Assembly (NCBI GenBank): GCA_965140585.1
Contig: OZ223264.1
Coordinates: 416,001-480,000 of the forward strand
Reading direction: 5' to 3'
Length of the DNA: 64,000 nt
Source of the DNA: Spirochaetia bacterium
GTDB taxonomy: Bacteria; Spirochaetota; Spirochaetia; UBA9216
The notes under the pieces were generated by a model. The model saw only the letters and a list, made by a program, of their open reading frames with translations. It made no database searches and was not told the DNA's origin. Below are positions 4,406-18,806 of this stretch, piece after piece. Each line of letters begins with the position of its first letter. Position 1 is the stretch's first letter. The position numbers and the translations under genes were made by a program.

Positions 4406-5695
4406 CTATATTAACGAAAGAAATATCTCCGCCGGAATGTATTCAGGAAACAGGTTTCCCGGTGTTTTGAAATTATTCAGAACAAGAGCATATTCGTAGG
4501 GTGTGAATTTTTCCTTCTCTCGCTCTGTAATAAAAAGACTTATTGCATTACCTATCTTTGTAAAAAACGATTCCGATTCCCCGTCTGTCGGCTTGCTGAC
4601 GCTCTGTTTTATTTCGGCATATTTAGCTTTGATGGTCTCAATCAGTTCCTTGAACGTATAGAGTCTGTTTCTCTCAATATCAAGCGATGCCGCAGCCGCG
4701 TCGATCAGGCAGTATATAAGATCCTTGTGAAATTTCTGTTCCGGCGGAAGGGTATTGCGGATAAGTATTTCGATGTTTTTTTCGCTGATTTTTTTTGTTT
4801 CATAATCCAGCAGATGTGAGTATTTCTGAACATTCTCCATGTCGAACAGTTTTCTGGTAAGATTTTCTTCAAGGTGACGATCAGGCTTAAAGAAGTAATT
4901 TATACCTTTGACTTTATCAAATACCTTAAGGGTATCCAGGTAGCCGATGTTTATATTTCTTTCAGCGGAATTGGGATCGAAGTCCAGTATTCCTCCCAGG
5001 TCCATGGAGTTTTTAATGTAGATTGTATCAGTGCCTGCAATGTCAGGTCTCCTGTTTACTCCGAGACCGGAGATGTCCACGACAATGATTTTTTTGTATC
5101 CTCGGTGCTTCATCATACGGTGCGGTATGTTATCCCAGATACCGCCGTCGGCGTATTTTTTACCATTGATCTCGGCGTTTTTGAAAACCGCTGGAATTGA
5201 TGCGCTTGCAAGCAGGTAGTCGGGCAGGGTTCCCGGCTCCATTGCATCGAGAAATATCTCTTTTGAAGAAAGGCTGTTGACCTCAACCGTGACTATGCCT
5301 AGGTCTCTGCCTGATTTTCTGATGTCGTCTTCTCTGATGGTTTCTTTTAGCATCCTGTAAAGCGGGGCTGTATCAAGTCCGAGGTTGCGGATATCCAGAT
5401 TGAGGTCCGATATTCGATTGAATGCTTTGAATGAGAATTTGAGTTTGCCGTTTTTAAGCATTCCCTCAGGTACTCTGATTATCCGTTCAAGGGTCATCTC
5501 TGTCCAGAGTTTTATTCCCAGCTCATATTCGTCCTGGGCTATTATTGCTGCATTGAGTGCTCCGACTGATGTCCCTGCAACTGCGTTTACTTCTATCTTA
5601 AGTTCTTTCAGAGCCTTCCATGCTCCAATTTCATATGCCCCTCTCGCGCCGCCGCCGGCAAGGACTAAACTGTATTCTGTTTTTTTATCAAACAT
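4406..5695 (-). CDS. Patatin-like phospholipase
   Basis: GGGARG, GTSVG and DGG motifs. Confidence 0.92.
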   Translation of the reverse strand: MFDKKTEYSLVLAGGGARGAYEIGAWKALKELKIEVNAVAGTSVGALNAAIIAQDEYELGIKLWTEMTLERIIRVPEGMLKNGKLKFSFKAFNRISDLNLDIRNLGLDTAPLYRMLKETIREDDIRKSGRDLGIVTVEVNSLSSKEIFLDAMEPGTLPDYLLASASIPAVFKNAEINGKKYADGGIWDNIPHRMMKHRGYKKIIVVDISGLGVNRRPDIAGTDTIYIKNSMDLGGILDFDPNSAERNINIGYLDTLKVFDKVKGINYFFKPDRHLEENLTRKLFDMENVQKYSHLLDYETKKISEKNIEILIRNTLPPEQKFHKDLIYCLIDAAAASLDIERNRLYTFKELIETIKAKYAEIKQSVSKPTDGESESFFTKIGNAISLFITEREKEKFTPYEYALVLNNFKTPGNLFPEYIPAEIFLSLI

Positions 5696-5712: not shown

Positions 5713-5742
5713 AATATAGGCTCCTGTGAAAGGATTGTCAAT
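5713..5742 (-). promoter_or_regulatory. Sigma-70-type promoter of the patatin gene
   Basis: Minus strand TTGACA-N17-TATATT. Confidence 0.6.
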
Positions 5743-5775
5743 CAAAGAAATTTGTTCGGCCGCCGGGTTGAGTTT

Positions 5776-5813
5776 TGGCCACGGATGTGTATAGGGTTTG
5801 CGCACAGCAGCGA
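5776..5813 (+). repeat. Left copy of a 38-bp imperfect inverted repeat (partner at 18540-18577)
   Basis: TGGCCACGGATGTGTATA is an exact 18-bp match to the reverse complement of 18560-18577; 33/38 identity over the full length. Confidence 0.85.
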
Positions 5814-5860
5814 ACTTGTATAGGGCTTGGGCAGGGCGGTGATTAGTGGGAGTAAGAAAG

Positions 5861-5986
5861 GCCTCCTTCAGTCCTTATATTTTACATCCCGTTTACAGGA
5901 ATTCAAGGGCAAGGTGAAAACGGCTTTGCCGTTCCCTTGAGTTCCTGTAAAGCGGGCCTGTGGTATAACTGAAAATTTCAGGAGGT
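5861..5986 (+). promoter_or_regulatory. Long imperfect hairpin enclosing the -35/-10/SD of the GxxExxY gene (Frpo-like ssDNA-promoter candidate)
   Basis: 5892-5909 pairs with 5934-5951 (18 bp, one G-T); CCCG/CGGG; TTATA/TATAA; TCAG/CTGA; GCCTCCT/AGGAGGT; inner AACGGC-ttt-GCCGTT hairpin. Confidence 0.65.
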
Positions 5987-5992
5987 ACGCAA

Positions 5993-6355
5993 ATGCTGTA
6001 CAAAGAATTAAGTTATCAAGTCATCGGCGGCTGCATGGCAGTTCACAAGGGTCTGGGGCCTGGGCTGCTTGAGCAGTGTTATCACAATGCATTGTTTTAT
6101 GAGCTCCGGGCTGCAGGCTTGGGTGTCGGGTATCATGTACCGTTTAATGTTCATTACCGTGGGCAGGTTGTGGGGGAGTATTTTGCAGACCTGGTTGTAA
6201 ATAATACTATTATTCTTGAATTAAAATCAGTAAAGGCAATTAATGACAGCCACAAGGCACAGTTAATTAACTATCTGCATATTAGCGACTGTCGTGTGGG
6301 TTACCTGCTTAACTTTCAGGGCTTGCAGCTTGAATGGCAGCGCCTGGTTATTTAG
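5993..6355 (+). CDS. GxxExxY protein (PD-(D/E)XK-like, PDDEXK_3)
   Basis: GPGLLEQCY, ADLVV...ELKSV and QLINYL motifs; strong SD. Confidence 0.92.
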   Translation: MLYKELSYQVIGGCMAVHKGLGPGLLEQCYHNALFYELRAAGLGVGYHVPFNVHYRGQVVGEYFADLVVNNTIILELKSVKAINDSHKAQLINYLHISDCRVGYLLNFQGLQLEWQRLVI

Positions 6356-6663
6356 AATCCGGTGAATAGAAGGTCAATCGCGGAAGTTACCTCGGTTCTG
6401 AGATGTGAGAGATTGATAATACAGTCACCTAAATAATGGATGGGAATGGCGGCCATTTCTGAAATGAAGGCAATATACGGCTGATTATTTATTTCAATTT
6501 CTATATGAATTTTGCTGATGTATTGACTTTTAGTATTTACGGCTTTTCGTAGAGGAGCAACGATACGTGTTGCAAGTTCGGAGATTTCATCCGCTTGCAG
6601 GATTATTAGATATTCTACATCTTTGGTATTGTTCTTATTAATAACTATATCAAATTGCCCCAT
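6352..6663 (-). CDS. ccdB: CcdB family toxin
   Basis: MxQFD start, LATRIVAPL and C-terminal AIDLLFTGF; lies downstream of ccdA with a 1-nt overlap. Confidence 0.8.
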   Translation of the reverse strand: MGQFDIVINKNNTKDVEYLIILQADEISELATRIVAPLRKAVNTKSQYISKIHIEIEINNQPYIAFISEMAAIPIHYLGDCIINLSHLRTEVTSAIDLLFTGF

Positions 6664-6881
6664 TAAAATGGTCTCATCCCGTCGCTGAATACACCATTTT
6701 TGTTTATCTGTTCATTGTATGCTTCTATGCTTTGACGGTTTTCTTCTTCCCATTCCTTTTTTTTGATTTTTGAAAGCTCCTTTTTTAAAGCCTCTTCAAG
6801 TATTTGAGAAAGAACAAGATTGTGCGCCTTTGCCGCCTCAAATATCTCATTCTGTATTGTAACGTTTGTTCTAGTTTTCAT
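6663..6881 (-). CDS. ccdA: CcdA family antitoxin
   Basis: KTRTNVTI ribbon-helix-helix start; WEEENRQSIEAYNE...GVFSDGMRPF is the typical CcdA C-terminus. Confidence 0.88.
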   Translation of the reverse strand: MKTRTNVTIQNEIFEAAKAHNLVLSQILEEALKKELSKIKKKEWEEENRQSIEAYNEQINKNGVFSDGMRPF

Positions 6882-6916
6882 GTGTATATAATAACACATT
6901 ATATGTGTGCATGCAA
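6882..6916 (-). promoter_or_regulatory. ccdAB promoter with palindromic operator
   Basis: Minus strand TTGCAT-N17-TATTAT-6 nt-ATG; ACACAT-tat-ATGTGT palindrome (6894-6908) in the spacer. Confidence 0.6.
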
Positions 6917-7061
6917 TTCCGGGGAAAAGATATGCTGCATGATCCTGCAGCTGAATTCATTAAAGGACCTTATGAAGGAGCACATGTACTGATAATGATA
7001 ACATCATCGACCCGATCGTTCGGATGAAAATTGAGTTATATTTATGAAAAATTGAGAACTT

Positions 7062-7805
7062 TTACTTCTGAGTATATTTACAATTGGGATAGTTAGAACA
7101 TCCATAAAATCTACCATATTTCCCATTTCGCTTAATTAAACGGCCACCACATCTGGGGCAGATGAGTAGTTGTTTCTTCTTTTCTCGGATATACAAGGTG
7201 TTATTAACGTTATAGATATGCTCAACATCTGCATGTTTTTCATGGATTCTGGCTTGATTGATTCGATTTACTACTTTCTCAAGATTATCAATACATATAT
7301 CATGTTGTTTACTTATAGATTTTATAACTGTTTCCAGTTGATGTTTGTATATGACAGGTGTTGCTGTAGTAACATTCTTTAATTCACCACTACCTACAAA
7401 GACTACGATAGGAAAAAAGGTAATGCCTTTAAAATCGCTTAGAACCTCTTTTAAGGCGTAGATGTGTGCCCAGTTCTGTTTGACAGGGTTAACTAACTGA
7501 TATTTACTCTTGTAGAAAGTTTGAGTCCAGTGCTCTGAGTTTTCATGACCATGAATCCAACCTCTATAATTTTTGGTTTCAATAACAAAAATGCCATATT
7601 TTGAGACTACTACATGGTCAATTTGGCTACTTCCTCTGCTTGTTTGAATAAGAACATCGTTTAGAATTGTATATTCATTCTGATTGAGTTTATACAGTTG
7701 GCTTGCTACTTGTGATTCCCCAGCCTTGCCTTTATAGTCAGCACTTTTAAATAGAAATGGAATAATCAGAATAATTAATAAAATGATTGCAATTAAGAAG
7801 ATCAC
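7062..7805 (-). CDS. NERD nuclease-related domain protein with N-terminal TM and C-terminal topoisomerase C4 zinc finger
   Basis: GKAGE, QIDHVVVSKYGIFVIETKN and NPVKQN motifs; CPRCG...RNGKYGRFYGCSNYPNC. Confidence 0.9.
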   Translation of the reverse strand: MIFLIAIILLIILIIPFLFKSADYKGKAGESQVASQLYKLNQNEYTILNDVLIQTSRGSSQIDHVVVSKYGIFVIETKNYRGWIHGHENSEHWTQTFYKSKYQLVNPVKQNWAHIYALKEVLSDFKGITFFPIVVFVGSGELKNVTTATPVIYKHQLETVIKSISKQHDICIDNLEKVVNRINQARIHEKHADVEHIYNVNNTLYIREKKKQLLICPRCGGRLIKRNGKYGRFYGCSNYPNCKYTQK

Positions 7806-8076
7806 CCAAATATTACCTCATTAAGTCTTTGGTAAACATTTTTAAAATTTCTTACCATATCTTAAATGTATCATTCGTAGTGTATGCAAGCAATTTTATC
7901 TGAAAAGAAAATAATAACGAATTATTGTTCTGAGATGAGATCAGATTAGATACCCGATTTCGGTGTGAAGTAGCTTATGAATTGGGACAGGTGACTCAGT
8001 TGAAAATGTTGATGTGAAGTTAATTTATTTGTGGTATTGTTTCATTATAAAAGTTATTTAAAAAGTGGAGATTAAC

Positions 8077-8961
8077 GTGAAAAAGTTGTTGCTTTTTGTT
8101 GTTTTTATATTTATGTCTACGATTTTTATTAACGCTCATCCATATACTAACCAATTAGAACAGGGGCAGCATAGAGGGAGCTTTTGGTTTCAGGCCATAC
8201 AGGGATATGAAGGTTATGTAGATCCGATTTTGTCATATTCTGAATCAGAATATATACTCGAGGGATATTCTTTACAGTCATTCTCCGCTTCATTCAATAC
8301 AGGATTCGCGGGTTCTTATATTTTCTACGAATATGGAATATATAATTTTCTTTCAGCAGGAATTAAGCTATCATTAGTAGATTTTATTGTACATGGATTA
8401 ACTGAGGATGTATGGTCGTTTGATGGCTCTGCGTTTATAAACATAAGTATTTTCCCGGATATTTACATACTCTTTTTTGATGAACCAAATTTTGACTTTT
8501 TTAATGTTTCGATGCAGGTAGAAGCTAATCGTGCACCTCTTTTTACCGATCAGAATTATAACTTTTATGGATATGGACTTTATAATATTTATTCTACTTT
8601 ATCGCTGGGGATAGATTTAATTAATACCTCAGATTTTTATATCTCAACCTGTTTTGATTTTAAACATATTTTATGTATTGCTGATGAGAATTATGGCGGG
8701 TATCTGTCCTTTGAAAGTGTGTTTGGAGAATATGATTCAGATTTGATTTATGAATATACAAATGGCAATAGATTTGCTTTTTGTCCCGGTATAGAGCTTG
8801 GTTGGAAGCATTTTTCAATGTTTGCTGGGTTTAATTTTAAATTATATGATGATTCTAAATATTCTGTACGTAATTATTTAAGTCAGGCGAATATTTCTGA
8901 ATATTTTACTTCTTCAAATGATATCACACAATTTGAATTGGAATATGTTTGGACGTTCTGA
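8077..8961 (+). CDS. Hypothetical exported protein, possible outer-membrane beta-barrel
   Basis: Signal-peptide-like start (GTG after GGAG), aromatic-rich sequence, C-terminal ELEYVWTF; very AT-rich DNA. Confidence 0.6.
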   Translation: MKKLLLFVVFIFMSTIFINAHPYTNQLEQGQHRGSFWFQAIQGYEGYVDPILSYSESEYILEGYSLQSFSASFNTGFAGSYIFYEYGIYNFLSAGIKLSLVDFIVHGLTEDVWSFDGSAFINISIFPDIYILFFDEPNFDFFNVSMQVEANRAPLFTDQNYNFYGYGLYNIYSTLSLGIDLINTSDFYISTCFDFKHILCIADENYGGYLSFESVFGEYDSDLIYEYTNGNRFAFCPGIELGWKHFSMFAGFNFKLYDDSKYSVRNYLSQANISEYFTSSNDITQFELEYVWTF

Positions 8962-9080
8962 TTTGTTCTGAGCTAAATGATTAAGGAATCATCCATACCA
9001 ATTCAATATAATTAGTAATGAATTCTGTTATCTTCTAATATCGTGATATAATCATGGGTAAAAAAGTAAGGATGTCTATT

Positions 9081-10109
9081 ATGAAAAAGTTATCGGCTAT
9101 AGTAATTTTAATTTTTCTGAATGTATTTCCGCTTTTGGCTACATGGTCAATAGTTGCAGTAGATCCGCAAACCGGGGAGGTCGGATCTGCAGGTGCTTCA
9201 TATACACCCTCAGTATGGCCTATTCTTGGAATTTATGGAGGGCATGGAGTTGTTGTAGCTCAGGCTGCAGGCAATGATGCTGCACGGATTAAGGCGGTTA
9301 AAATGCTTGGGAAGGATTATTCTGCAGCACAGATTCTGGATGTAATAACTGCTCCAGATTATAACAGCGGCAGGGTTAATCAGCAGTTCGGTATAGCCTC
9401 TTTGAGTGGAGGTACTGCAGCTTTCACTGGTGATAATTGTACTTCCTGGGCTGGAAGCCTTGGAAGTGATTTTGTAATGGTTCAGGGCAATATTCTTGTT
9501 AGTGAGAATGTGGTTGCGGACAGTCTTGCCGCCTATGAAAAAGCCCGAGCCGACGGTTTTATTCTGGCTGATGCTCTTGTTGAAGCTCTGGCAGCCGGGG
9601 CGTCTGCCGGAGGGGATCGTAGGGCGGGTGATCCGGAAATAGCCGCGATGTCTGCCTATCTGGCCGTAGCCTTGCCCGGAGATAAACCTAATCATGCTTC
9701 TTCAGGGATACTTGTACCGCCTCTTAAAGACGGAGGAAACCCGGTAACAGAGCTTAAACGCCTGTACGAAGCAGATGAAATTGGAAGAAATCTGTTTTTC
9801 CCCTCCATGAATCTGATGATTTTACTGCTTCTCGCCGTTCCTGCAGTTTTTGGATTATCAGGTTTTCTTCTGCTTGAAAGGATGCACAAAAAGAATACAG
9901 TATCAAAGCTCCTTGTGTGGCTGGGCGCCATATTCATTTCTGCTGTTATCCAGCAGATTCTTATTCTTCTGTTTAAATCACTCGGCTGGGCTCTTCCTGT
10001 ATACGGATTTTTTACCTGGATGCTTCCGGCAATGCTTGTAGTGTTTCTTGCTGTGCTGATTCTGCTGATAATATTAATACATGCTGTTTACCGAAAAATA
10101 ATGGGATAA
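9081..10109 (+). CDS. DUF1028 (Ntn-hydrolase-like) protein with signal peptide and C-terminal TM helices
   Basis: TWSIVAVDPQTGEVG, QQFG, AAFTG, VQGNIL and GGDRR motifs. Confidence 0.82.
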   Translation: MKKLSAIVILIFLNVFPLLATWSIVAVDPQTGEVGSAGASYTPSVWPILGIYGGHGVVVAQAAGNDAARIKAVKMLGKDYSAAQILDVITAPDYNSGRVNQQFGIASLSGGTAAFTGDNCTSWAGSLGSDFVMVQGNILVSENVVADSLAAYEKARADGFILADALVEALAAGASAGGDRRAGDPEIAAMSAYLAVALPGDKPNHASSGILVPPLKDGGNPVTELKRLYEADEIGRNLFFPSMNLMILLLLAVPAVFGLSGFLLLERMHKKNTVSKLLVWLGAIFISAVIQQILILLFKSLGWALPVYGFFTWMLPAMLVVFLAVLILLIILIHAVYRKIMG

Positions 10110-10249
10110 TTAATTTCGATTTTGTCTGCATGAGTTTTCTCAAGTGCTACTAATTTTCATGTTCACAGTGGTTAGGCATGAAATGAAATTGAGACAAGAC
10201 TCTTCTAAGTCCAATCAGGATTTTTGCGGTACCGACCGGCGTTCATGCC

Positions 10250-10966
10250 CTTCAGGGCGGGGCAGCTTTGGTTAATGTGCACGGCATGTTTGACCGGGAT
10301 AAATACGACGGGCAGCATATTGCCTGAGACGGGAATGTACTTCACAACCAGCATAATCTTTCACAAATGGCTGATGCAATTCATTTCTATGGCGAAAAGG
10401 TTTCCATGGAAATTCTCGGTGAAAACAGGGAAGGCTACTATGATGTTTTTGAGAGCCTCGCAGGTTTTGCATCTTCGACTCCTTCGAAAGAGATGACTCC
10501 TGAGATTATGAATGAAATTGCGGAAAGTTATGCCGATACCGCGGCTACTGCCCAGCGCTGCGGTTTTGATATATTTATGATTCATATGGCCTATTCTTCA
10601 CCGGGGCCGACACGATTTATTTCTCCACACTTTAATAAAAGAACAGACGAATAAGGTGGACCAATTGAGAACCGCCTTAAATTTCCTATAATGGTTTTCG
10701 ACTGTATCAAGGTTGAGGATACTATTGTGATGTCTAAAATCCTTGAAAGGCATATTGATATGCTGCATTTTCACGGCGGCGAGGTGTGGTCTGCCCCTCC
10801 GACATGTTTTGCCGGCTTCGCTTCCTTTGTTCTTGTTGCCGAGCAGATCAAGAAAGCAGGTTCGCCCATTCCGATTGTAGCAATAGGCTGAATTCAGGAC
10901 CTTGATGAAATAGAAGAAATTCTTTCTACCGGTAAGGTTGATATTGTCTCGATGGGTCGGGGATGA
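10250..10966 (+). pseudogene. Decayed NADH:flavin oxidoreductase (Old Yellow Enzyme-like)
   Basis: One frame reads GGAALV...IA*DG...LSQMADAIHFYG...AQRCGFD...IHMAY...FISPHFNKRTDE*GGPIENRLKF...PIVAIG*IQD...GKVDIVSMGRG*; several in-frame stops, no intact start. Confidence 0.8.
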
Positions 10967-11230
10967 ACTTCTACCAGACCGCGATAAAGGTTTTAATGAT
11001 CGGCGACTGTCAAAAGATTGGCAACGTATCCTCTGCAATCCGTTCAGCCGACGCGACAGCTTCGCAGATTTAGATTGGGCTTGATGGGTTTTTCAGCAAG
11101 CCCTACTTAAATAGTCAGTTAAATATTAAACAGCAGATTGGGAGAAGGTGGTACGTTTTGAGGCCTTGGTTTTTATACGGTATATGAATTCAGTGTATTA
11201 AATTAAACTTTACAGCATAGTGTAAGAAAT

Positions 11231-11265
11231 AAAAAGGGCTGCAGTTTAATTGCTGCAAGCCCTTT
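11231..11265 (-). terminator. Intrinsic terminator of the transporter-ridA-malY-DUF169 operon
   Basis: Minus strand AAAGGGCTTGCAG...CTGCAGCCCTTTTT just after the DUF169 stop. Confidence 0.65.
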
Positions 11266-11277
11266 CAGAGTTAATGA

Positions 11278-12048
11278 TTAGTGCAGATGACACTCGCAGT
11301 CCATTTCTGCTGCCATGGTCTGCCAGTTCTGCATTCTATTTTTTAATTCCATACGGCTTTCGCTGTCTTCTCTGAAAGCAATGGTTGTCCAGTTCATTTC
11401 TCCCAATGCGGTTGCAATTTCGTCGATTTTATTAAACGGAATTGAAATCATTCGTAATCCTTCAGGAAAGGCTTTTCTTCGCCTTAATCCATGATAAAAA
11501 CCGGTTGTCATATGATTGACTTTTCCTGATATCAGAGGATAGGCATACATCCAGCTGCAGCTGATTGCCGGAGTTGAGACTGATTCCCAGAGATCCCCTG
11601 AGATATAGCATGAAGCACGCATAATAATATCCGCTTTTTTGATATCTGCGAAAATGATTATCAAATCGGGATCAAAGCTGCAGTTTTTTACCTGAGAAAA
11701 AGCTACATAGTTTATTGCTCCGGGAACAAGAACCGGCAGATGCTGATACACCTTCATCATGGCAGAAGCGGTTTTGTAAAGTTCAAAATCAAGTCCTGCC
11801 TGACCGGAAGCAGTAACCGGCGGTTTAGGTATCATGCCGAGAGACATTTTTCCGTAGCATGCATCATTATCTTTATCAATATAAAAAGTCTCTTCAGAGG
11901 TTTGAGCTTCTTTTACATATTGGCAGAAAGCTAGATTTTCATTGTGCTTTTTTATTCCCTCTGGCTTTGTAGGCAGGTATTTAACAGCTACCGCAGGTAT
12001 GTTCAGCTCAAGCCGGGCAAAGATTTCTTTTGTGCGTTCGTTTAACAT
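11278..12048 (-). CDS. DUF169 domain protein
   Basis: AVAVKY, FCQYVKEA, ACYG, FDPDLIII and CSWMYAYP pattern typical of DUF169. Confidence 0.75.
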   Translation of the reverse strand: MLNERTKEIFARLELNIPAVAVKYLPTKPEGIKKHNENLAFCQYVKEAQTSEETFYIDKDNDACYGKMSLGMIPKPPVTASGQAGLDFELYKTASAMMKVYQHLPVLVPGAINYVAFSQVKNCSFDPDLIIIFADIKKADIIMRASCYISGDLWESVSTPAISCSWMYAYPLISGKVNHMTTGFYHGLRRRKAFPEGLRMISIPFNKIDEIATALGEMNWTTIAFREDSESRMELKNRMQNWQTMAAEMDCECHLH

Positions 12049-12052
12049 TATA

Positions 12053-13249
12053 TTATCCTGCCGATTTTATTTTAAGTAATGTTTTTCTAAGCCGTTCAAT
12101 TGCTGCATATATATATTTTGTCGGGCATGCCAGGTTCCATCTTTCGAATCTCTCACCCTGTTCACCAAATATAAAGCCGTCATCAAAAAAGAGATTTGCC
12201 TCCTCTTTCAACAGTCGGGCCAGTTTCCGTGATTCGATGCCGAGTGCCCTGAAGTCCATCCACAGAAGATAAGTTCCCTCGAGTTTGTATACTTTAATTT
12301 CGGGAAATTCCTGAGAAAAAAAGCTGCTTATTATTTCTCGATTAGTATCAATCAGCGTTAAAACCTGTTCAAGCCAATCTTCACAATTCTCATAGGCTAA
12401 ACGGCATGCTTCCATTCCCAGTGTAGTGCATTTGGGATTTCCTTCTGTTGTCATTACTTCCTGCCAGTAAGTATCACGAATCTTTTCATTCGGAATAATC
12501 AGATTGGCTGTCTGCAGTCCGGCAAGATTGAAGGTTTTACTAGGGGCCGTGCAGGTGATGGAATTCATTGCAAATTCCTCACAAATGGAAGCAAATACTG
12601 TGTGCCGGAAACCGGGCATGATTATATCGTTATGAACTTCATCGGCAACAACAATAACGTCGTTTTCCAGACAGATACGGCCAATTTTGGTTAATTCATC
12701 TATAGTCCAAACTCTACCTGTAGGATTATGCGGACTGCATAATATCAGTATTTTAGTATCAGGATCAGACGCCTTTTTTTCAAAATCGATGAAATCGATT
12801 TCATAGGTGTTCTCTTTTTGTATGAGTTTGGTATCCACAAGTCTGCGATTGTTCCGCTTAATTGCATAATACATCGGGTAGTATACTGGGGTCATAAGCA
12901 TTACCCCTTCACTTTCTTTTGAAAAGGCTTTAACAGCAGTGAAAAAGGCATTAATTACGCCGTGTGAATCTTTCAGCCATGCTGTATCTATTTCCCAGCC
13001 ATGTCTTCTATGCATCCAGTCTTTTACTGCATTCTTATACTCCCCGGTAGCATGTCCATAACCAAGTACAGTTGAATCGAGGTACTTTTTTAATCCAGAT
13101 ATAATTTCCGGTGGATTCAGAATTTCCATATCTGCAAGTGAAAAGGGGATGATATCATTCTGAAGAGTTTTAACGGTTTTCATTTCATCCCATTTTGAGC
13201 TTCCGGTATTAAATCGTTCAATTACAGTTTCAAAATCATATTGCTTCAT
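12053..13249 (-). CDS. MalY/PatB family PLP-dependent C-S (beta) lyase
   Basis: SSKWD, ADME, LCSPHNPTGRVW, DEVH, APSKTFNLAG and EGTYLLWMD motifs; TAATG coupling to ridA. Confidence 0.92.
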   Translation of the reverse strand: MKQYDFETVIERFNTGSSKWDEMKTVKTLQNDIIPFSLADMEILNPPEIISGLKKYLDSTVLGYGHATGEYKNAVKDWMHRRHGWEIDTAWLKDSHGVINAFFTAVKAFSKESEGVMLMTPVYYPMYYAIKRNNRRLVDTKLIQKENTYEIDFIDFEKKASDPDTKILILCSPHNPTGRVWTIDELTKIGRICLENDVIVVADEVHNDIIMPGFRHTVFASICEEFAMNSITCTAPSKTFNLAGLQTANLIIPNEKIRDTYWQEVMTTEGNPKCTTLGMEACRLAYENCEDWLEQVLTLIDTNREIISSFFSQEFPEIKVYKLEGTYLLWMDFRALGIESRKLARLLKEEANLFFDDGFIFGEQGERFERWNLACPTKYIYAAIERLRKTLLKIKSAG

Positions 13250-13629
13250 TAATTTTTCCATGCTATAGCTTCTATTTCTACAAGTACATCCTTCGGCAGA
13301 CGGGATACTTCCACTGCTGAGCGCGCCGGAAATATTGTGTTTTTAAAAAAATCCATATAAACGCTGTTCATTTCTGCAAAGTTCTTCATGTCACTTAAAA
13401 AGACAGTGGTTTTACAGATGTCGCTAATTTCGGCGCCTGCACTCTCAACGACGTTTTTTAAATTATTTAATGACAGCTTTGTCTGCCCGATAATACCTTC
13501 CGGTATTTCACTGCTTTCAGGATTTACAGGCAATGAGCCGGACACGAATATCAAATTCCCTATTCCGACAGCCTGTGAATAAGGACCAATTGCTGCTGGT
13601 GCCTTTTCTGTCTCAATTTTATACTTCAT
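13249..13629 (-). CDS. ridA: RidA family enamine/imine deaminase
   Basis: APAAIGPYSQA, KTTVFLSDM, FPARSAVEV and VEIEAIA motifs. Confidence 0.92.
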   Translation of the reverse strand: MKYKIETEKAPAAIGPYSQAVGIGNLIFVSGSLPVNPESSEIPEGIIGQTKLSLNNLKNVVESAGAEISDICKTTVFLSDMKNFAEMNSVYMDFFKNTIFPARSAVEVSRLPKDVLVEIEAIAWKN

Positions 13630-13694
13630 TTTCTGGCATCTCCATATTAAGATCAGGCGGATATTTAATTGAATCCGCCCTTTGTAGTTGATAT

Positions 13695-15107
13695 TTATTC
13701 TGCGACGATAATACCGTCGGCAGCTAGTTCTTCATCAGTTTCGTGTTTTCTTCCCCATCCTGACAGGATTGCAAACCAGTACACTACGACAAGAGCCATA
13801 CTGTAAAAATTAAAGTATACAAAGTCAAAAGGGCTGAATCCTTCCGCTACAGATCCGCTGGCGACAGCCAGAGATGCAAGAACCATACATCCCACATTTG
13901 TAGGAACCAGGTATCCGACACCGCATCCGAGACCGTCCAGGAAATTAGCTGCTCTTGCTCTGTCTATTCTGAATGGACGCATGAGGCTTCGGATGATTGG
14001 GCCGCAGAATGTTATTGCAGAGGTTCCACTGCTTATGGCTATACTCATTACGCTTACCATAGCTCCTGATGCAATTTCTGCGGTTTTCTCTGACTTCGCA
14101 TATTTGCGCATACCATTTAGAAGTGCATCTAATACTCCCGCATCTCTTATCAGACTGACTACAATAAAGATGAACAGAATAAATATGATGGAACCGGTCA
14201 TTCCGCTGAACCCTGAGGCTATCAGACCGTCTCTTGCAACAAGTTCTGAAAAGCTTGTGTATCCGAACGCAAAGAGCATAGCTACTCCGAGCAGTTCAGC
14301 TATTATCAATGCTGTAAAAAAGTTTGCTTTATTCAGCATCAACACAATAATCAGTACAGGAATAACTAAAAAGACAAGACTTGATGCATATGTAGAATCA
14401 GCAGTTATACTCTGTACAACTGAAGAATCGACGGTTTGCATTCCGACAAACAGGAAAATCAGGGCTGCAGCGGCTCCGCCGATGAGTGAATATTTTAATC
14501 TTGATTTTACAACTTTTATAACACTTACTTCCTGTGTCAGAGAGGAAGCTATTGTTGTATCCGAAACAGGGGCAAGGTTGTCTCCAAAAGCCGCTCCGGA
14601 CAGGATTGCTCCGCAGACTACGCCTGGGTGTCCTCCCATTGCGGTAGCCATGGGAACCATTATCGGTGTCAGAGTGCCTACTGAACTCGCCGCGCTTCCT
14701 GTTGAGGTTGACAGGAGTGCACTGATGAAAAAGCAAATCAAAGGTACGAGACCTGGTGAGAGATTGATCTTGGATGCGGCCCATAGCATTCCCTGTACTA
14801 CATGGGAAGCAGAGAGAATCTTTGAAAGCACACCTGCTAACAGGAATATTAAAAGCATTATCCCGAAAATCTTGTCCCTTACACCGGAGATGATGGCTTC
14901 CTGAAATTTCTTTTTATCTTTATATACAAAAAAGCCTACAATCATTGCAAGGAAACCCGCACTCCAGAAATTGCTTGTTGAGCGCATGCCGTTTACTGCA
15001 AGTATTATCATGGTCAGGATCATTACCAGAAGAGGCATTATTCCTCCAAACAGGCCTCCGTATGTTTCGGCAACCTTATGCTGAGGTTTTGTTTTCACAG
15101 CGGACAT
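13695..15107 (-). CDS. NhaC-family transporter (probable amino-acid carrier)
   Basis: STGSA and GAILSGAAFGDNLAPVSDTTIASS signature; about 12 TM segments. Confidence 0.88.
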   Translation of the reverse strand: MSAVKTKPQHKVAETYGGLFGGIMPLLVMILTMIILAVNGMRSTSNFWSAGFLAMIVGFFVYKDKKKFQEAIISGVRDKIFGIMLLIFLLAGVLSKILSASHVVQGMLWAASKINLSPGLVPLICFFISALLSTSTGSAASSVGTLTPIMVPMATAMGGHPGVVCGAILSGAAFGDNLAPVSDTTIASSLTQEVSVIKVVKSRLKYSLIGGAAAALIFLFVGMQTVDSSVVQSITADSTYASSLVFLVIPVLIIVLMLNKANFFTALIIAELLGVAMLFAFGYTSFSELVARDGLIASGFSGMTGSIIFILFIFIVVSLIRDAGVLDALLNGMRKYAKSEKTAEIASGAMVSVMSIAISSGTSAITFCGPIIRSLMRPFRIDRARAANFLDGLGCGVGYLVPTNVGCMVLASLAVASGSVAEGFSPFDFVYFNFYSMALVVVYWFAILSGWGRKHETDEELAADGIIVAE

Positions 15108-15186
15108 AATTTATATTTCTCCTTAGTTTATTTTAATCTAAAACACTGAAACTGCAGCTGTTAAATCGAGTACTCGGATTTATAAA

Positions 15187-15202
15187 TGCAAATTTCATGC
15201 CA
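15187..15202 (-). promoter_or_regulatory. Sigma-54 (-24/-12) promoter
   Basis: Minus strand TGGCAT-GAAAT-TTGCA, about 80 nt upstream of the transporter ATG, next to a divergent bEBP gene. Confidence 0.85.
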
Positions 15203-15314
15203 TACTTAAAAACTAAGAAAATCTGTCTTGTATTCTGTATTTTTCAGTATTTATGGGATTATTGGGATTATATGGATCCTGTAAATCCATTAAGATAATA
15301 GTTCGGAGAAGGTT

Positions 15315-17363
15315 ATGAAAGAGATTGCAATTCTAACATATTCGATTGATGCCGCTGATTTATATTTTAATATATTGACCGATGTCCTGCAGAATGTTGT
15401 AAAAATTAGAAAATACAGTGTTGAGGAAGATAATATAAACAATCCAATTAATGCTGATCTTGCCATATTATCTGCCTTTGAATTATTTGACTTAACTAAA
15501 AAATATATATCTAAAGATGTTCAGATCATGATTCCAAACCTTACAATAAAGAAAGCGAGTTTTACACAAATTCAGAAACTTCCTCAAGGGACACAGGCCT
15601 TGATTGTGAATGCAACTTTCGGGATGGCTGTTGAGTGTGTGGAACAGATCTACCGATTTGGAGCCCGGCATATAGAATTGGTGCCATATTCCCCATACCT
15701 TGATAATGTGAAAGACATTGATCTTGCGATCACCCCTGGCGAGAATCAGTACATTCCCAAATGGGTTGATAAGGTTATTGATATCGGAAAAAGAGTTTTT
15801 GATATCAGCACTATTGTAAATATATTGATTTACTTAAATAAAGAAGAACTTTTTATCACTGAAAAAATGAAAGAATATTGCAGCCAGATAATGCCTCAGA
15901 ACTATATGCCCCAGACTGATCACAGGCTTAACCCTTTCAGTATGAATGATTTTTTTATATCTAATTACAGATTCGGCATTATCGGGTTTAGTCCGGGCGG
16001 TATGATTCTTAACTTCAACAATGCTGCAGAGAAGATTCTCGGATATCGAAAAGAAGCTGTGATCGGAGAGAATATAATGACTTTATTTTCAGATCCCCAG
16101 CTGAAAGAAACCATAAGAGACCTTAAGCCGCAGAGAAAAAAGCAGATAAACCTCAATGGTCAGGATCTTCTTGTTGATATAAATATCGGGTATGTCAGTT
16201 CCACTAAAATATGTTATATGACTCTGGAACGCATGCATCAGAATGCTGTGGGTATTCCTTCCGCAAAAAATCAGATAGCAGGGAAGGGATATACTGCAAA
16301 GTATTTTTTCAGTGATATTGTTACGGGAAATGAAGAGATGCAGAAGCTGAAAAAAATCGGAGCTCAGAATGCAGCCTCGGATTCTTCTGTACTGCTGATA
16401 GGAGAAAGCGGAACAGGCAAGGAGCTCTTTGCACAGGCCATTCATAATGAATCTGCAAGAAGAAATGCACCCTTTGTTGCTATAAACTGTGCGGCTGTTG
16501 CTGAAAGCCTGCTTGAAAGTGAACTGTTCGGGTATGATGAAGGGGCATTTACTGGTGCAAAACGCGGAGGAAAAAAGGGTTTATTTGAACTTGCACATAC
16601 AGGAACTATCTTTTTAGATGAGATTGGAGAAATGCCTGCACATCTTCAAGCCAGACTGTTAAGGGTCCTGCAGGAGAAAGAGGTTACTCATGTAGGAGGT
16701 AATCAGGTAATCAGTATTGATATACGAGTAATTGCTGCTACAAACTGCAATGTTCTGGAACTGATAAAAGAAAATAAGTTTAGAAAAGATCTGTATTACC
16801 GGCTCAATGTCATTACCTTAAAACTGCCGGCTCTCAGAGCCAGGAGAAATGATATCTCTCTTCTAATTGAAGAGTTTAAAAAACAATTTAAAGTGGATTT
16901 TAAAATTGATCTCGATGCTTTTGAAAAGTTATACAACCATGAATGGGATGGAAATATAAGAGAACTTCACAACTATATAGAATATTTTAAAAATCTGAGA
17001 AAACCCCGTATTACGATTAATGATATTCCTTTTCTACAGATCAATAATCCGGATTCTTCCTTCAGTTATGATGAAAATGTTGAGAGTATAAAAAATGCTA
17101 AGAAAACAGATGAAAAAGCTCATACCGAGGTTTTATCCATACTTGAAATCCTTTATAAGTCAGCTGAAGAAAATAGGACCGCAGGCCGGCGTTATATAGC
17201 GGAAATGTCCAGGAAAAGAAACGAATTTTTATCTGAAATCAGGATACGATCTCTGCTTGAAAAGATGCAGGAGCAGGGGCTTGTGAAAATACTTAAAGGA
17301 CGGGGTGGAACTAAGCTCACATCACAGGGTCTTGAGTTTTTAAAGAAATATACAAACGTTTAA
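15315..17363 (+). CDS. Sigma-54-dependent transcriptional activator (PAS, AAA+, C-terminal winged HTH)
   Basis: [39 protein letters not shown] and WDGNIREL motifs. Confidence 0.95.
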
Positions 17364-17388
17364 ACAAATTCCGATCTGATACAAAATC

Positions 17389-17912
17389 CTAATCAGTAAA
17401 ACAGACAAAGAATTCTGCACCATCCTGTGTTTGTAAGGTTAGTGCAGACCATTTAATAGAAGTCCCGTCTTCTTCGGTAACAGGATCCATAGGAGCTATG
17501 TTAATTAGTGCTCCATACTGAGGGATTTGATTCTCAGAATCCCATCCGACAACAATATGGTAATCAGTTGCAGTTTTAATATGCCCTTTTCTTAATCATA
17601 CGGATCAGCCGATAAAATAACCTGAAGGCCTCCCTGTTCAGCAGGTAAGTAGTACCATCCTTCTTCTTCCGCATTATACTGAACAAAACGAAGGGCCAAT
17701 GCCTGTTTGTAACCGGCTTCGGAGGCTGTCGGGGCTCCTTCTCCCAATGAGGTCTCCAGAATATTGCTGCTGACATTTTCATCATAATTAAGTTCAATCA
17801 CTATATCTCCCCAGCTTCCGTACTGGTGTTGCTGGCGGGCGCTGATGGTTTCTGCGCAGGCTGATGAAGCTATAAGGATAAGAAGAAGTATGGCTATTAT
17901 TCGAATTTTCAT
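17389..17912 (-). pseudogene. Exported hypothetical protein, probably interrupted
   Basis: A signal-peptide ORF stops at 17592. A shifted frame stays open (IKTATDYHIVVGWD...FFVCFTD*) to 17389. Confidence 0.5.
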
Positions 17913-17981
17913 TGTAATTCCTTAATTTATTGTTTACAGAGCATTATTATATTTTTTTATTAATGCTGTTAAGCTGTTCAT

Positions 17982-18419
17982 CTATTCAATAATCCCATCA
18001 ACTATCCCTATTGCATCAGCAATATAGCCGTGACATTGTTCGACCATATTCTCAGATTTAAACCGCTGCTGGCCTTCATCGCTTAAGAGGTTGCAGCCGT
18101 CAAGAAGTTTCCTGCAGATTATGGTGTTGTTTTTTTCTTCAAAATTCGAAATCAGTTCTCTTATCTTCAGGTAGTTTACTTCCTGTTGTGGCTTTTCATC
18201 TTCGCAGCCTCTGCCGCAGATCATATTAAGCGCAAGTATCCCTCCGGATACCGCACCGCAGATATTCTGGGTCCTGCCCATACCTGATCCGAATCCGGTC
18301 GCTATTTTCAGGGACTGATCTTCGGTCAAGCCTGTATACTCACGAAGGCTGAACAGTACAGACTGCGCGCAGTTGTAACCTTCTTTAAACTTGTTTATTC
18401 CAATTTCTTTTAGATCCAC
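17982..18419 (-). CDS. C-GCAxxG-C-C family redox protein
   Basis: FKEGYNCAQSV, GFGSGMG, ICGAVSG, ICRKLL and a terminal Cys; GTG start after GGAG. Confidence 0.88.
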   Translation of the reverse strand: MDLKEIGINKFKEGYNCAQSVLFSLREYTGLTEDQSLKIATGFGSGMGRTQNICGAVSGGILALNMICGRGCEDEKPQQEVNYLKIRELISNFEEKNNTIICRKLLDGCNLLSDEGQQRFKSENMVEQCHGYIADAIGIVDGIIE

Positions 18420-18539
18420 TTCTTCATACTCCGTTTTTATAATATTAAAACCATAATAAGGCATAGTTAACACAAACGTCTACAATATACCTTCAAAGAC
18501 ACTCAGAGCTTGCTACCTCCAATCCCTAATCTGTGCAAA

Positions 18540-18577
18540 TCTCTGCCCTGCGCATACCATATACACATCCGTGGCCA
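18540..18577 (-). repeat. Right copy of the 38-bp inverted repeat (partner at 5776-5813)
   Basis: Reverse complement is TGGCCACGGATGTGTATATGGTATGCGCAGGGCAGAGA. Confidence 0.85.
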
Positions 18578-18624
18578 GCCCCTCCCATAGTAACCTTACT
18601 GTCCCGTGGTCAAAATTTTCTCTA

Positions 18625-18652
18625 TTGACTAAACTCCCGCCGCAGATATAAT
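18625..18652 (+). promoter_or_regulatory. Sigma-70 promoter of the pheST leader
   Basis: TTGACT-N16-TATAAT. Confidence 0.65.
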
Positions 18653-18662
18653 GGAGATAAAC

Positions 18663-18752
18663 ATGGATAATCGGAAAACCACTTACAGCTTTTTTTACTT
18701 TTTTAGCTTTAGCAACTCAGCCAATGAGGGGCACCGGTTATCTCTGCAATAG
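18663..18752 (+). CDS. Phe-rich leader peptide (PheM-like), 29 aa
   Basis: MDNRKTTYSFFYFFSFSNSANEGHRLSLQ*; GGAGA SD; five TTT codons within seven codons, directly upstream of a terminator and pheS. Confidence 0.82.
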   Translation: MDNRKTTYSFFYFFSFSNSANEGHRLSLQ

Positions 18753-18769
18753 AAACAACAGGGTATGAC

Positions 18770-18806
18770 AGCGGGTTCCTCGAACAGGGGAATCCGCTTT
18801 TTTTTT
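18770..18806 (+). terminator. Attenuator terminator in the pheST leader
   Basis: AGCGGGTTCCTC-gaaca-GGGGAATCCGCT stem followed by a T run. Confidence 0.88.

Follow-up and report, generated by a model that had tools for sequence, protein, structure and literature searches.

Facing copies of a repeat associated with GxxExxY genes border an old 12.8-kb insertion with a variable gene slot in a spirochaete genome

We analyzed a 64,000-nt stretch of contig C1 of a Spirochaetia bacterium (the window), in which an interval of 12.8 kb (5776-18577) between the patatin gene and pheST is bordered by two inverted repeats, arm L on the left and arm R on the right, and is headed by a gene of the GxxExxY family (PDDEXK_3). 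Comparison of sequences within this genome and with its relatives identifies both arms as members of a family of repeats, here called A-boxes, that belongs to GxxExxY gene cassettes. Our preferred explanation, to which we assign a probability of roughly 0.55, is that L is the A-box of an intact cassette, that R is an orphan A-box, and that facing A-boxes or cassettes delimit slots prone to swapping of their DNA at more than one locus. Positions without a contig label are those of the window; other loci of the source genome (G000; 4,851,726 bases) carry the label of their contig (C1, C5, C6, C7 or C9). The features that make up the two borders are as follows.

4406-5695, minus strand: patatin gene (Patatin domain)
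5713-5741, minus strand: outward-facing promoter-like site of the patatin gene (TTGACA-17-TATATT, 11 of 12 consensus matches)
5776-5813, plus strand: arm L, assigned as the A-box of the resident GxxExxY cassette (profile match 5773-5827; tandem half-repeat 5817-5842)
5861-5992, plus strand: structured leader (hairpin core 5892-5951)
5993-6355, plus strand: GxxExxY/PDDEXK_3 gene, 120 amino acids (PF13366, 133.1 bits, cut-off 22; TIGR04256, 137 bits, cut-off 35)
18540-18577, minus strand: arm R, assigned as an orphan A-box (profile match 18516-18577)
18625-18652, plus strand: outward-facing promoter-like site of pheST (TTGACT-16-TATAAT)

The arms are complementary over 38 nt, with matches at 33 of 38 positions (87%), and form the longest of the 72 inverted pairs found between positions 5000 and 19500. 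They share an exact 18-mer that occurs twice in the window against an expectation of 0.02 (two or more copies in 0 of 100 shuffles) and also just twice in the whole assembly. When up to three mismatches were allowed, a control in which the 18-mer was read backwards also gave 1+1 matches, so the weight of this result rests on the exactness of both real copies. Both arms are oriented toward the interior of the interval, and each precedes a strong, outward-facing promoter-like site of the TTGAC type that belongs to the neighboring gene (minus strand, 5741-5713; plus strand, 18625-18652). Neither a direct repeat nor a target duplication flanks the arms, L being preceded by GAGTTT and R followed by GCCCCT. 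The match between the arms, their orientation, the neighboring promoter-like sites and the lack of a target duplication agree with the initial annotation, made from the sequence of the window. One addition to it is a third, partial copy (T; C1:401636-401701), which is oriented like L and found 20 kb upstream of it, with a lacI-family gene on one side and the promoter of an arsR-permease operon on the other.

Profile searches placed the arms in a wider family. A first profile, built from L, R, T and the two corresponding arms of the sister species (G001, the other known species in the genus), found only L, R and T as strong matches in the source genome, its best weak matches lying beside the GxxExxY (PF13366) genes on C9 and C7. 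A broader profile, which includes the source genome's own copies, found exactly ten A-boxes there at a cut-off of E≤1. For seven, a PF13366 match is no more than 250 nt away, which leaves R, T and the far arm of a locus on C5 (C5:111925-111875) as solo copies. The A-box is a 55-65-nt array. Its CAC(G/T)GAT boxes, two or three in number, are for the most part separated by close to an integral number of helical turns (spacings of about 11, 21, 33, 38 and 44 nt), and the array is laid out as a CCAC(G/T)GAT box, a G-rich stretch and then one or two further CAC(G/T)GAT boxes. The core box was present on the gene strand upstream of 19 of the 28 GxxExxY genes in nine genomes of this spirochaete family, compared with 0 of 28 for the reversed pattern (the same letters read backwards) and 5 of 28 for the reverse complement; several of the nine genes missed by the core box hold one-letter variants. 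The bare 8-mer is not enriched in the source genome (39 seen, about 98 expected), so only the extended motif counts. These data bear out the link between repeat and GxxExxY genes that the initial annotation had proposed as a check.

All six PF13366 loci of the source genome share one architecture: an A-box at about 175-300 nt upstream of the start codon, CCTCC, a TTTTAC-type element, a hairpin, AGGAGG and the gene. Arm L is located about 175-220 nt upstream of its GxxExxY gene, and the offset is equal at the cassette on C9. A tandem pair of cassettes, spaced by about 1 kb, is found at C7:465961-467461. Each has an A-box of its own, and the second is a truncated cassette without half of its hairpin and most of its gene. 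The motif is absent beside patatin or pheS in three further genomes (G007, G005 and G004). When the arms were written as a degenerate pattern, only the two arms of the sister species were matched in public genomes; the pattern demands an exact match, and diverged copies escape it. The GxxExxY gene was found in 0 phage records and in 8 plasmid records, all typed as non-mobilizable, and neither of the two plasmid records inspected (CP102406.1 and NZ_AP025289.1) contains the A-box or leader architecture. These two unrelated plasmids or chromids both have a non-coding gap of 300-500 nt upstream of the GxxExxY gene, and a co-oriented gene 40-65 nt downstream of it (a metal-dependent hydrolase in one and Fic in the other); the C9 cassette likewise heads hsdR.

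The leader between arm L and the gene is predicted to fold as one long rod (minimum free energy -62 kcal/mol, z -6.0; 0 of 200 shuffles as stable). In the predicted fold a CCTCC anti-Shine-Dalgarno element pairs with the AGGAGG ribosome-binding site around a long, interrupted hairpin built on TCAAGG...CCTTGA, and in an alignment of 19 sequences compensatory double changes were seen for 8 of the 12 predicted pairs. A search of Rfam gave no family for the leader, the sole match being a sub-threshold microRNA model on the hairpin. Nineteen nucleotides of the right hairpin arm (5943-5961) recur at 95% identity within the patatin coding region (5353-5371); this may be by chance.

By its residues and its modeled fold, the 120-amino-acid GxxExxY protein is a minimal PD-(D/E)XK nuclease, with catalysis predicted. 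Residues E27, D66 and K78 are invariant among 24 relatives, and E76 is found in at least 90% of them. The AlphaFold2 model has a pLDDT of 95, and by Foldseek it comes closest to Cas4 SSO0001, lambda exonuclease and the Hjc resolvases, which are of similar size (TM-scores 0.45-0.63). The description of the protein in the initial annotation as PD-(D/E)XK-like is thus supported by both the residues and a restriction-endonuclease-like fold. A sequence search found no solved structure of a relative. In a table of PMC3424549 the function of the family is listed as unknown, and a passage of another paper mentions the GxxExxY domain only as the neighbor of a reverse transcriptase. Our literature search, which covered sources outside subscription journals, found only passing mentions of GxxExxY or PDDEXK_3 and no repeat or leader tied to the family.

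The interval enclosed by the arms, together with the regulatory features of pheST just outside it, contains the following features.

6368-8010: variable slot, differing from the sister species and from run X4
6352-6663, minus strand: ccdB (CcdB domain), abutting ccdA
6663-6899, minus strand: ccdA (CcdA domain), abutting ccdB
7062-7805, minus strand: gene with NERD domain and Zn-ribbon (domain match)
8065-8961, plus strand: orphan gene without family match, partly deleted in the sister species (643-nt deletion)
9054-10109, plus strand: DUF1028 gene (domain match)
10110-11277: decayed region, with an OYE-type oxidoreductase fragment at 10367-10654
11278-15107, minus strand: operon of DUF169, aminotransferase, RidA and NhaC-type transporter genes (domain matches)
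15315-17363, plus strand: sigma-54-dependent activator (PAS-AAA-HTH), divergent from the operon
17592-17912, minus strand: open reading frame (ORF) without assignment
17982-18473, minus strand: C_GCAxxG_C_C gene (domain match)
18663-18752, plus strand: Phe-rich leader peptide of pheST, outside the interval
18770-18798, plus strand: attenuator terminator of pheST, outside the interval

The interval was compared with the corresponding site in relatives, the patatin and pheS neighborhood being sought in 41 genomes of the class, the source genome included. In three genomes from three other genera (G006, G018 and G016), patatin and pheS are divergent neighbors with spacers of 564, 341 and 172 bp, respectively, and the motif is absent from all three spacers; the empty site that the initial annotation had considered is therefore present in these relatives. 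The gap between the two genes is about 14 kb in the sister species and 186 kb in G007, and in most of the other genomes the genes are on different contigs or lack a clear orthologue. Among 11 genomes of the family, true orthologues of the aminotransferase (98% amino acid identity) and of the sigma-54 activator (97%) were found only in the sister species, other matches being at the level of paralogues, 35-41% for the former and at most 53%, with partial coverage, for the latter. Empty spacers in three genera and cargo orthologues confined to the sister species indicate that the interval was acquired by the lineage of this genus. These comparisons identify the interval as an insertion into an ancestral patatin-pheS spacer that took place before the two known species split. 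In the sister species it is collinear at 84-94% nucleotide identity, and likewise in X4, a sequencing run from a strain resembling the sister species, so the insertion is old. Absence from the same site in relatives is a property of genomic islands; the hallmarks that often go with it were missing, as no integrase and no flanking direct repeats were found, nor was a tRNA-like feature detected in the arms by eye or with Rfam.

The differences between the two species within the interval are confined to three places: the slot behind the GxxExxY gene, the 643-nt deletion in the orphan gene, and extra DNA at the decayed genes, where X4 has 1736 nt in place of 303. In the slot (6368-8010), ccdB, ccdA and the NERD gene of the source genome are replaced in both the sister species and X4 by 1451 nt that encode HigB, a helix-turn-helix (HTH) gene and two ORFs without assignment. 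The slot is thus a variable site for toxin-antitoxin (TA) or defence genes in an interval that is itself collinear and fixed. The initial annotation suggested that ccdAB may stabilize the interval; in run X3, from a more distant strain represented by one 964-nt contig at a depth of 5.5, ccdB is gone (296 nt replaced by 9 letters; 6365-6662) and ccdA and the GxxExxY gene are kept. Nothing shows the 12.8-kb interval itself to be still mobile.

The arms themselves bear traces of an exchange. The inner halves of L and R are orthologous and conserved between the source genome and the sister species, and R has a T-type inner half, identical to T at 29 of 31 positions. The outer half of R is identical to that of L in the source genome only: the outer 17-18 nt of the two arms are the same there, whereas in the sister species the arms differ from each other and from those of the source genome. 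The central part of both arms varies freely between the species. Under a reciprocal inversion, the inner halves would change places and the outer halves would stay where they are; the alignment of the arms implies instead a short, non-reciprocal exchange, by conversion, between L and R in the lineage of the source genome, whose direction cannot be fixed from two genomes. Inverted repeats that exchange sequence would also be expected if crossover at the arms inverted the intervening 12.7 kb, whether by a site-specific mechanism or driven by homology, but we consider there to be very little chance of this. The interval has the same orientation in the source genome, the sister species and X4, and no invertase or other recombinase gene was found. 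Contigs of four runs, in which rare forms can be missed, contained no inversion or excision joint of the kind that the initial annotation had envisaged; the sole joint on opposite strands, in run X1, is copy T matching R on the same contig. Moreover, homogenized outer halves are not what a reciprocal inversion would leave. About 24 extra nt, with a CCACGG-like box on the minus strand, are present beside R (18578-18612) in the source genome compared with the sister species and X4.

A second locus, on C5, repeats the geometry of L and R. An A-box at 109001 (plus strand) heads a GxxExxY gene, and an inverted A-box is found at 111922 (minus strand); homology between the source genome and the sister species breaks at 109051 and resumes at 111935, so that the break points between the species coincide with inverted A-boxes. 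Between them the source genome has 2.9 kb with a gene without assignment, a DUF5677 gene and an HTH gene. The sister species has 10.5 kb, encoding a methyltransferase, HNH, helicase-DUF2726, DUF3427, PLD-helicase and Fic proteins, with a GxxExxY fragment at one end and an oppositely oriented GxxExxY pseudogene near the other.

Two further loci combine A-boxes with variable DNA in other arrangements. On C9, an island of 9.85 kb absent from the sister species takes the place of 46 nt of its spacer, and the comparison with this empty site shows no target duplication. The island contains GxxExxY, hsdR, hsdM and hsdS (a type I restriction-modification system), two genes without assignment, RES-HEPN and RadC. 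In another genome, G007:C1:9301-29822 is a 20-kb defence island with four GxxExxY cassettes, along with a split type I restriction-modification system, SMODS/SLATT, PIN-DUF433, DUF4411-ImmA and HicB. It is flanked by a 300-nt direct repeat (86% identity) that contains an A-box; this repeat consists of the terminator region behind a pyruvate:ferredoxin oxidoreductase gene together with the A-box. No empty site for the G007 island was found in five sister species, in which the left flank is conserved and the right flank was not located. Directly repeated A-boxes on both sides of single cassette genes are another arrangement, found at C9 and in G007.

These arrangements bear on whether the arms could be terminal inverted repeats (TIRs) of a non-autonomous transposon or composite element that brought in the 12.8 kb, with a transposase acting in trans or since lost. 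Consistent with such an origin, a 38-nt inverted repeat stands exactly at the borders of an insertion missing from other genera, the tandem sub-repeat of L resembles a multi-site transposon end, and homology to X3 stops exactly at the outer edge of L (5775|5776), as seen in its single low-depth contig. We nevertheless regard a transposon origin as highly improbable. A domain scan of 20 ORFs of the interval and its flanks revealed no recombinase or transposase, as the initial annotation had noted, and none of the 18 ORFs in the 20-kb stretch separating T from L carries a transposase; with no target duplication as well, two features of a TIR transposon (for example, the Tn3 family with its 38-bp ends) are lacking. 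In addition, only three copies of this A-box subtype exist, A-boxes also occur as direct repeats and upstream of genes, and the A-box is not at the junction in the empty-site comparison on C9. The suggestion of the initial annotation that the arms could be the ends of one discrete element is for these reasons not upheld, the interval also being fixed in the sister species and X4.

Of our preferred explanation, the comparisons show that the arms belong to the A-box family, that a cassette consists of an A-box, a leader hairpin predicted to sequester the Shine-Dalgarno sequence, and the gene for the 120-amino-acid PD-(D/E)XK nuclease, that the 12.8-kb interval is an insertion relative to other genera, now fixed, and that the slot directly behind the GxxExxY gene still turns over, being occupied by ccdAB and NERD here and by HigB-HTH in the sister species. 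The rest is inferred. Replacement of the slot would proceed by recombination anchored in the conserved cassette and A-box sequences, perhaps aided by the nuclease, with resident DNA between facing A-boxes or cassettes giving way to incoming DNA. R would be the remainder of a second, inward-facing cassette.

A stronger proposal is that the A-boxes are recognition sites of the GxxExxY nuclease, which would break or nick them, and that repair from another A-box copy would convert the arms and swap or capture the DNA between facing cassettes. If true, this would amount to a recombinase-free, nuclease-driven capture and exchange of defence and TA genes, restrained by a leader that hides the ribosome-binding site. 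We consider this proposal doubtful. The A-box, leader and gene are inherited together, and their co-occurrence is therefore no proof that the protein recognizes the A-box. A correspondence between A-box subtype and protein clade was dropped as evidence for recognition, gene and repeat being co-inherited.

This co-inheritance is one of several observations that weigh against the explanation based on facing A-boxes. The C9 cassette heads one end of its island, but its A-box is set back from the junction by about 65 nt, into the island, and no A-box is present at the opposite end; A-boxes are hence not precise break points everywhere. A tblastn search around R, T and the right arm at C5 detected no meaningful GxxExxY remnant (best E 3.9-21), so that the view of R as a relic draws solely on analogy with the C5 locus of the sister species. 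The forward box was present upstream of 0 of 15 GxxExxY genes outside the family, in other families of the class, making the link between A-box and GxxExxY lineage-specific; the leader recurs in at least three of these cases. The comparison set comprises two species of the genus and two partial strains from run contigs, and slot turnover accordingly rests on few events. T has diverged at the average rate of its region (86%). Lastly, strong, outward-facing promoter-like sites have their -35 elements 20-45 nt downstream of L, R and T, an arrangement that could instead mean a regulatory role.

Several of these points would be expected if the arms, T and the solo copies were neutral relics, left over from duplicated upstream regions of cassettes, with the inverted layout and the variability of the slot coincidental. 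There are only ten copies, T has drifted with its region, the central parts of the arms differ freely between the two species, and the interval is fixed and collinear in the sister species and X4. This explanation is possible but on balance unlikely: the inverted geometry with break points at A-boxes recurs at C5, T has retained its CACGGAT boxes amid drift of the intervening sequence, and the outer halves of L and R have been homogenized in the source genome.

The location of the arms near promoters raises another explanation, in which a DNA-binding protein would use the A-box as an operator or upstream activating array to control the promoter of the cassette and, in the case of L, R and T, those of patatin, pheST and arsR as well. 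The spacing of the boxes near whole helical turns is compatible with such a function, as are the proximity of L, R and T to the -35 elements and the constant position of the A-box just 5' of the cassette leader. We judge a regulatory function of this type to be improbable. The flanking genes encode a phospholipase, a tRNA synthetase and metal resistance, with no obvious common regulatory logic, and relatives with the empty site express patatin and pheS from motif-free spacers. A second A-box directly behind some cassette genes (C9 and G007) is unfit for a promoter element, and the distance to the flanking promoter varies.

The promoter regions that adjoin R and T have features of their own. 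Downstream of the pheST promoter-like site, a leader peptide of 29 codons has five Phe in eight residues (SFFYFFSF), and a terminator of 12 pairs that ends in a T-run follows; together they form a classical Phe attenuator. The patatin-pheS spacer of G006 shows a similar hairpin and A-run. In the arsR-permease operon beside T, a 22-nt AT-rich palindrome (C1:401557-401600) is placed after the -10 element and before the ribosome-binding site and is likely an ArsR-type operator.

The cargo of the interval was largely as initially annotated. The adjoining ccdA and ccdB genes match PF07362 (81 bits) and PF01845 (74 bits), and the decayed genes are supported by the OYE-type fragment at 10367-10654, the place where the sister species carries extra DNA. 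The label 'OMP-like' (outer membrane protein-like) for the gene at 8065-8961 found no family support. The interval as a whole is AT-rich as described, with a GC content of 39.5% compared with 45% in the flanks, but unevenly so: ccdAB, the NERD gene and the orphan gene are at 32-36%, the sigma-54 activator at 37%, and the operon at 42%.

We compared the A-box system with known arrangements of short repeats and exchanged genes. The source genome contains an integron at C6:916649-966300, with intI at 916649-917575 (375 bits, cut-off 265) and about 30 attC sites of about 135 nt over 46 kb (919.9-966.3 kb). Integron cassettes resemble the GxxExxY cassettes in being small, promoterless-looking units with conserved non-coding ends, TA and orphan cargo, and no recombinase inside. 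The resident attC sites differ in that their consensus is unrelated in sequence to the A-box and their array is confined to the one region on C6, and A-boxes were on this basis rejected as attC sites. The intI gene was above cut-off in all five family genomes checked, none of which has a GxxExxY match within 100 kb of intI on the same contig.

Repetitive extragenic palindromic (REP) sequences and REPINs are lineage-specific short repeats, short palindromes in tens to hundreds of copies, that are associated with RAYT genes encoding a Y1 (IS200/IS605-like) transposase. The A-boxes are similar in being short, lineage-specific repeats tied to a small nuclease-type gene present in few copies per genome, and in forming inverted pairs. 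They differ in that the gene encodes a PD-(D/E)XK (PF13366) protein and not a Y1 transposase, and in having about ten copies, arrays of boxes, and positions at the edges of variable defence slots. With no association to a Y1 (HuH) transposase and 10 copies in 4.85 Mb, the A-boxes do not belong to the REP/RAYT systems. A dispersed REP-like repeat was likewise rejected, there being only a handful of copies by 18-mer and profile and no enrichment of the 8-mer.

The pdif modules of Acinetobacter plasmids are gene modules, often for TA or resistance functions, that are bracketed by inverted XerC/D sites. The likeness lies in recombinase-free modules between inverted short sites, with TA cargo that swaps between relatives; in contrast, no 11-6-11 Xer layout is apparent by eye in the arms described here, their setting is chromosomal, and the sites are tied to a nuclease gene. 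No Xer-type symmetry was seen by eye between the conserved arm halves, and a resemblance of part of the arm to a dif half-site or to the 3' end of a tRNA, also judged by eye, was dropped, as there was no symmetry or T-loop. Defence islands and hotspots carry differing defence or TA genes at the same site in close relatives, as do the C1 slot, C5, C9 and G007, but the borders here consist of a dedicated repeat and a small nuclease cassette and not only of core genes, tRNA genes or integrases.

Proteins of the GxxExxY (PDDEXK_3) family are found widely, occur in multiple copies and have no assigned function. The combination of a repeat, a leader predicted to block translation, and a position at the borders of swap-prone defence and TA slots provides a concrete, testable context for the family, and points to one possible way of setting the borders of defence hotspots in the absence of integrases. 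Action of the nuclease on the repeat would make the system a gene-exchange device of a new kind; without such action, the A-box would still be useful as a marker of variable slots in these genomes.

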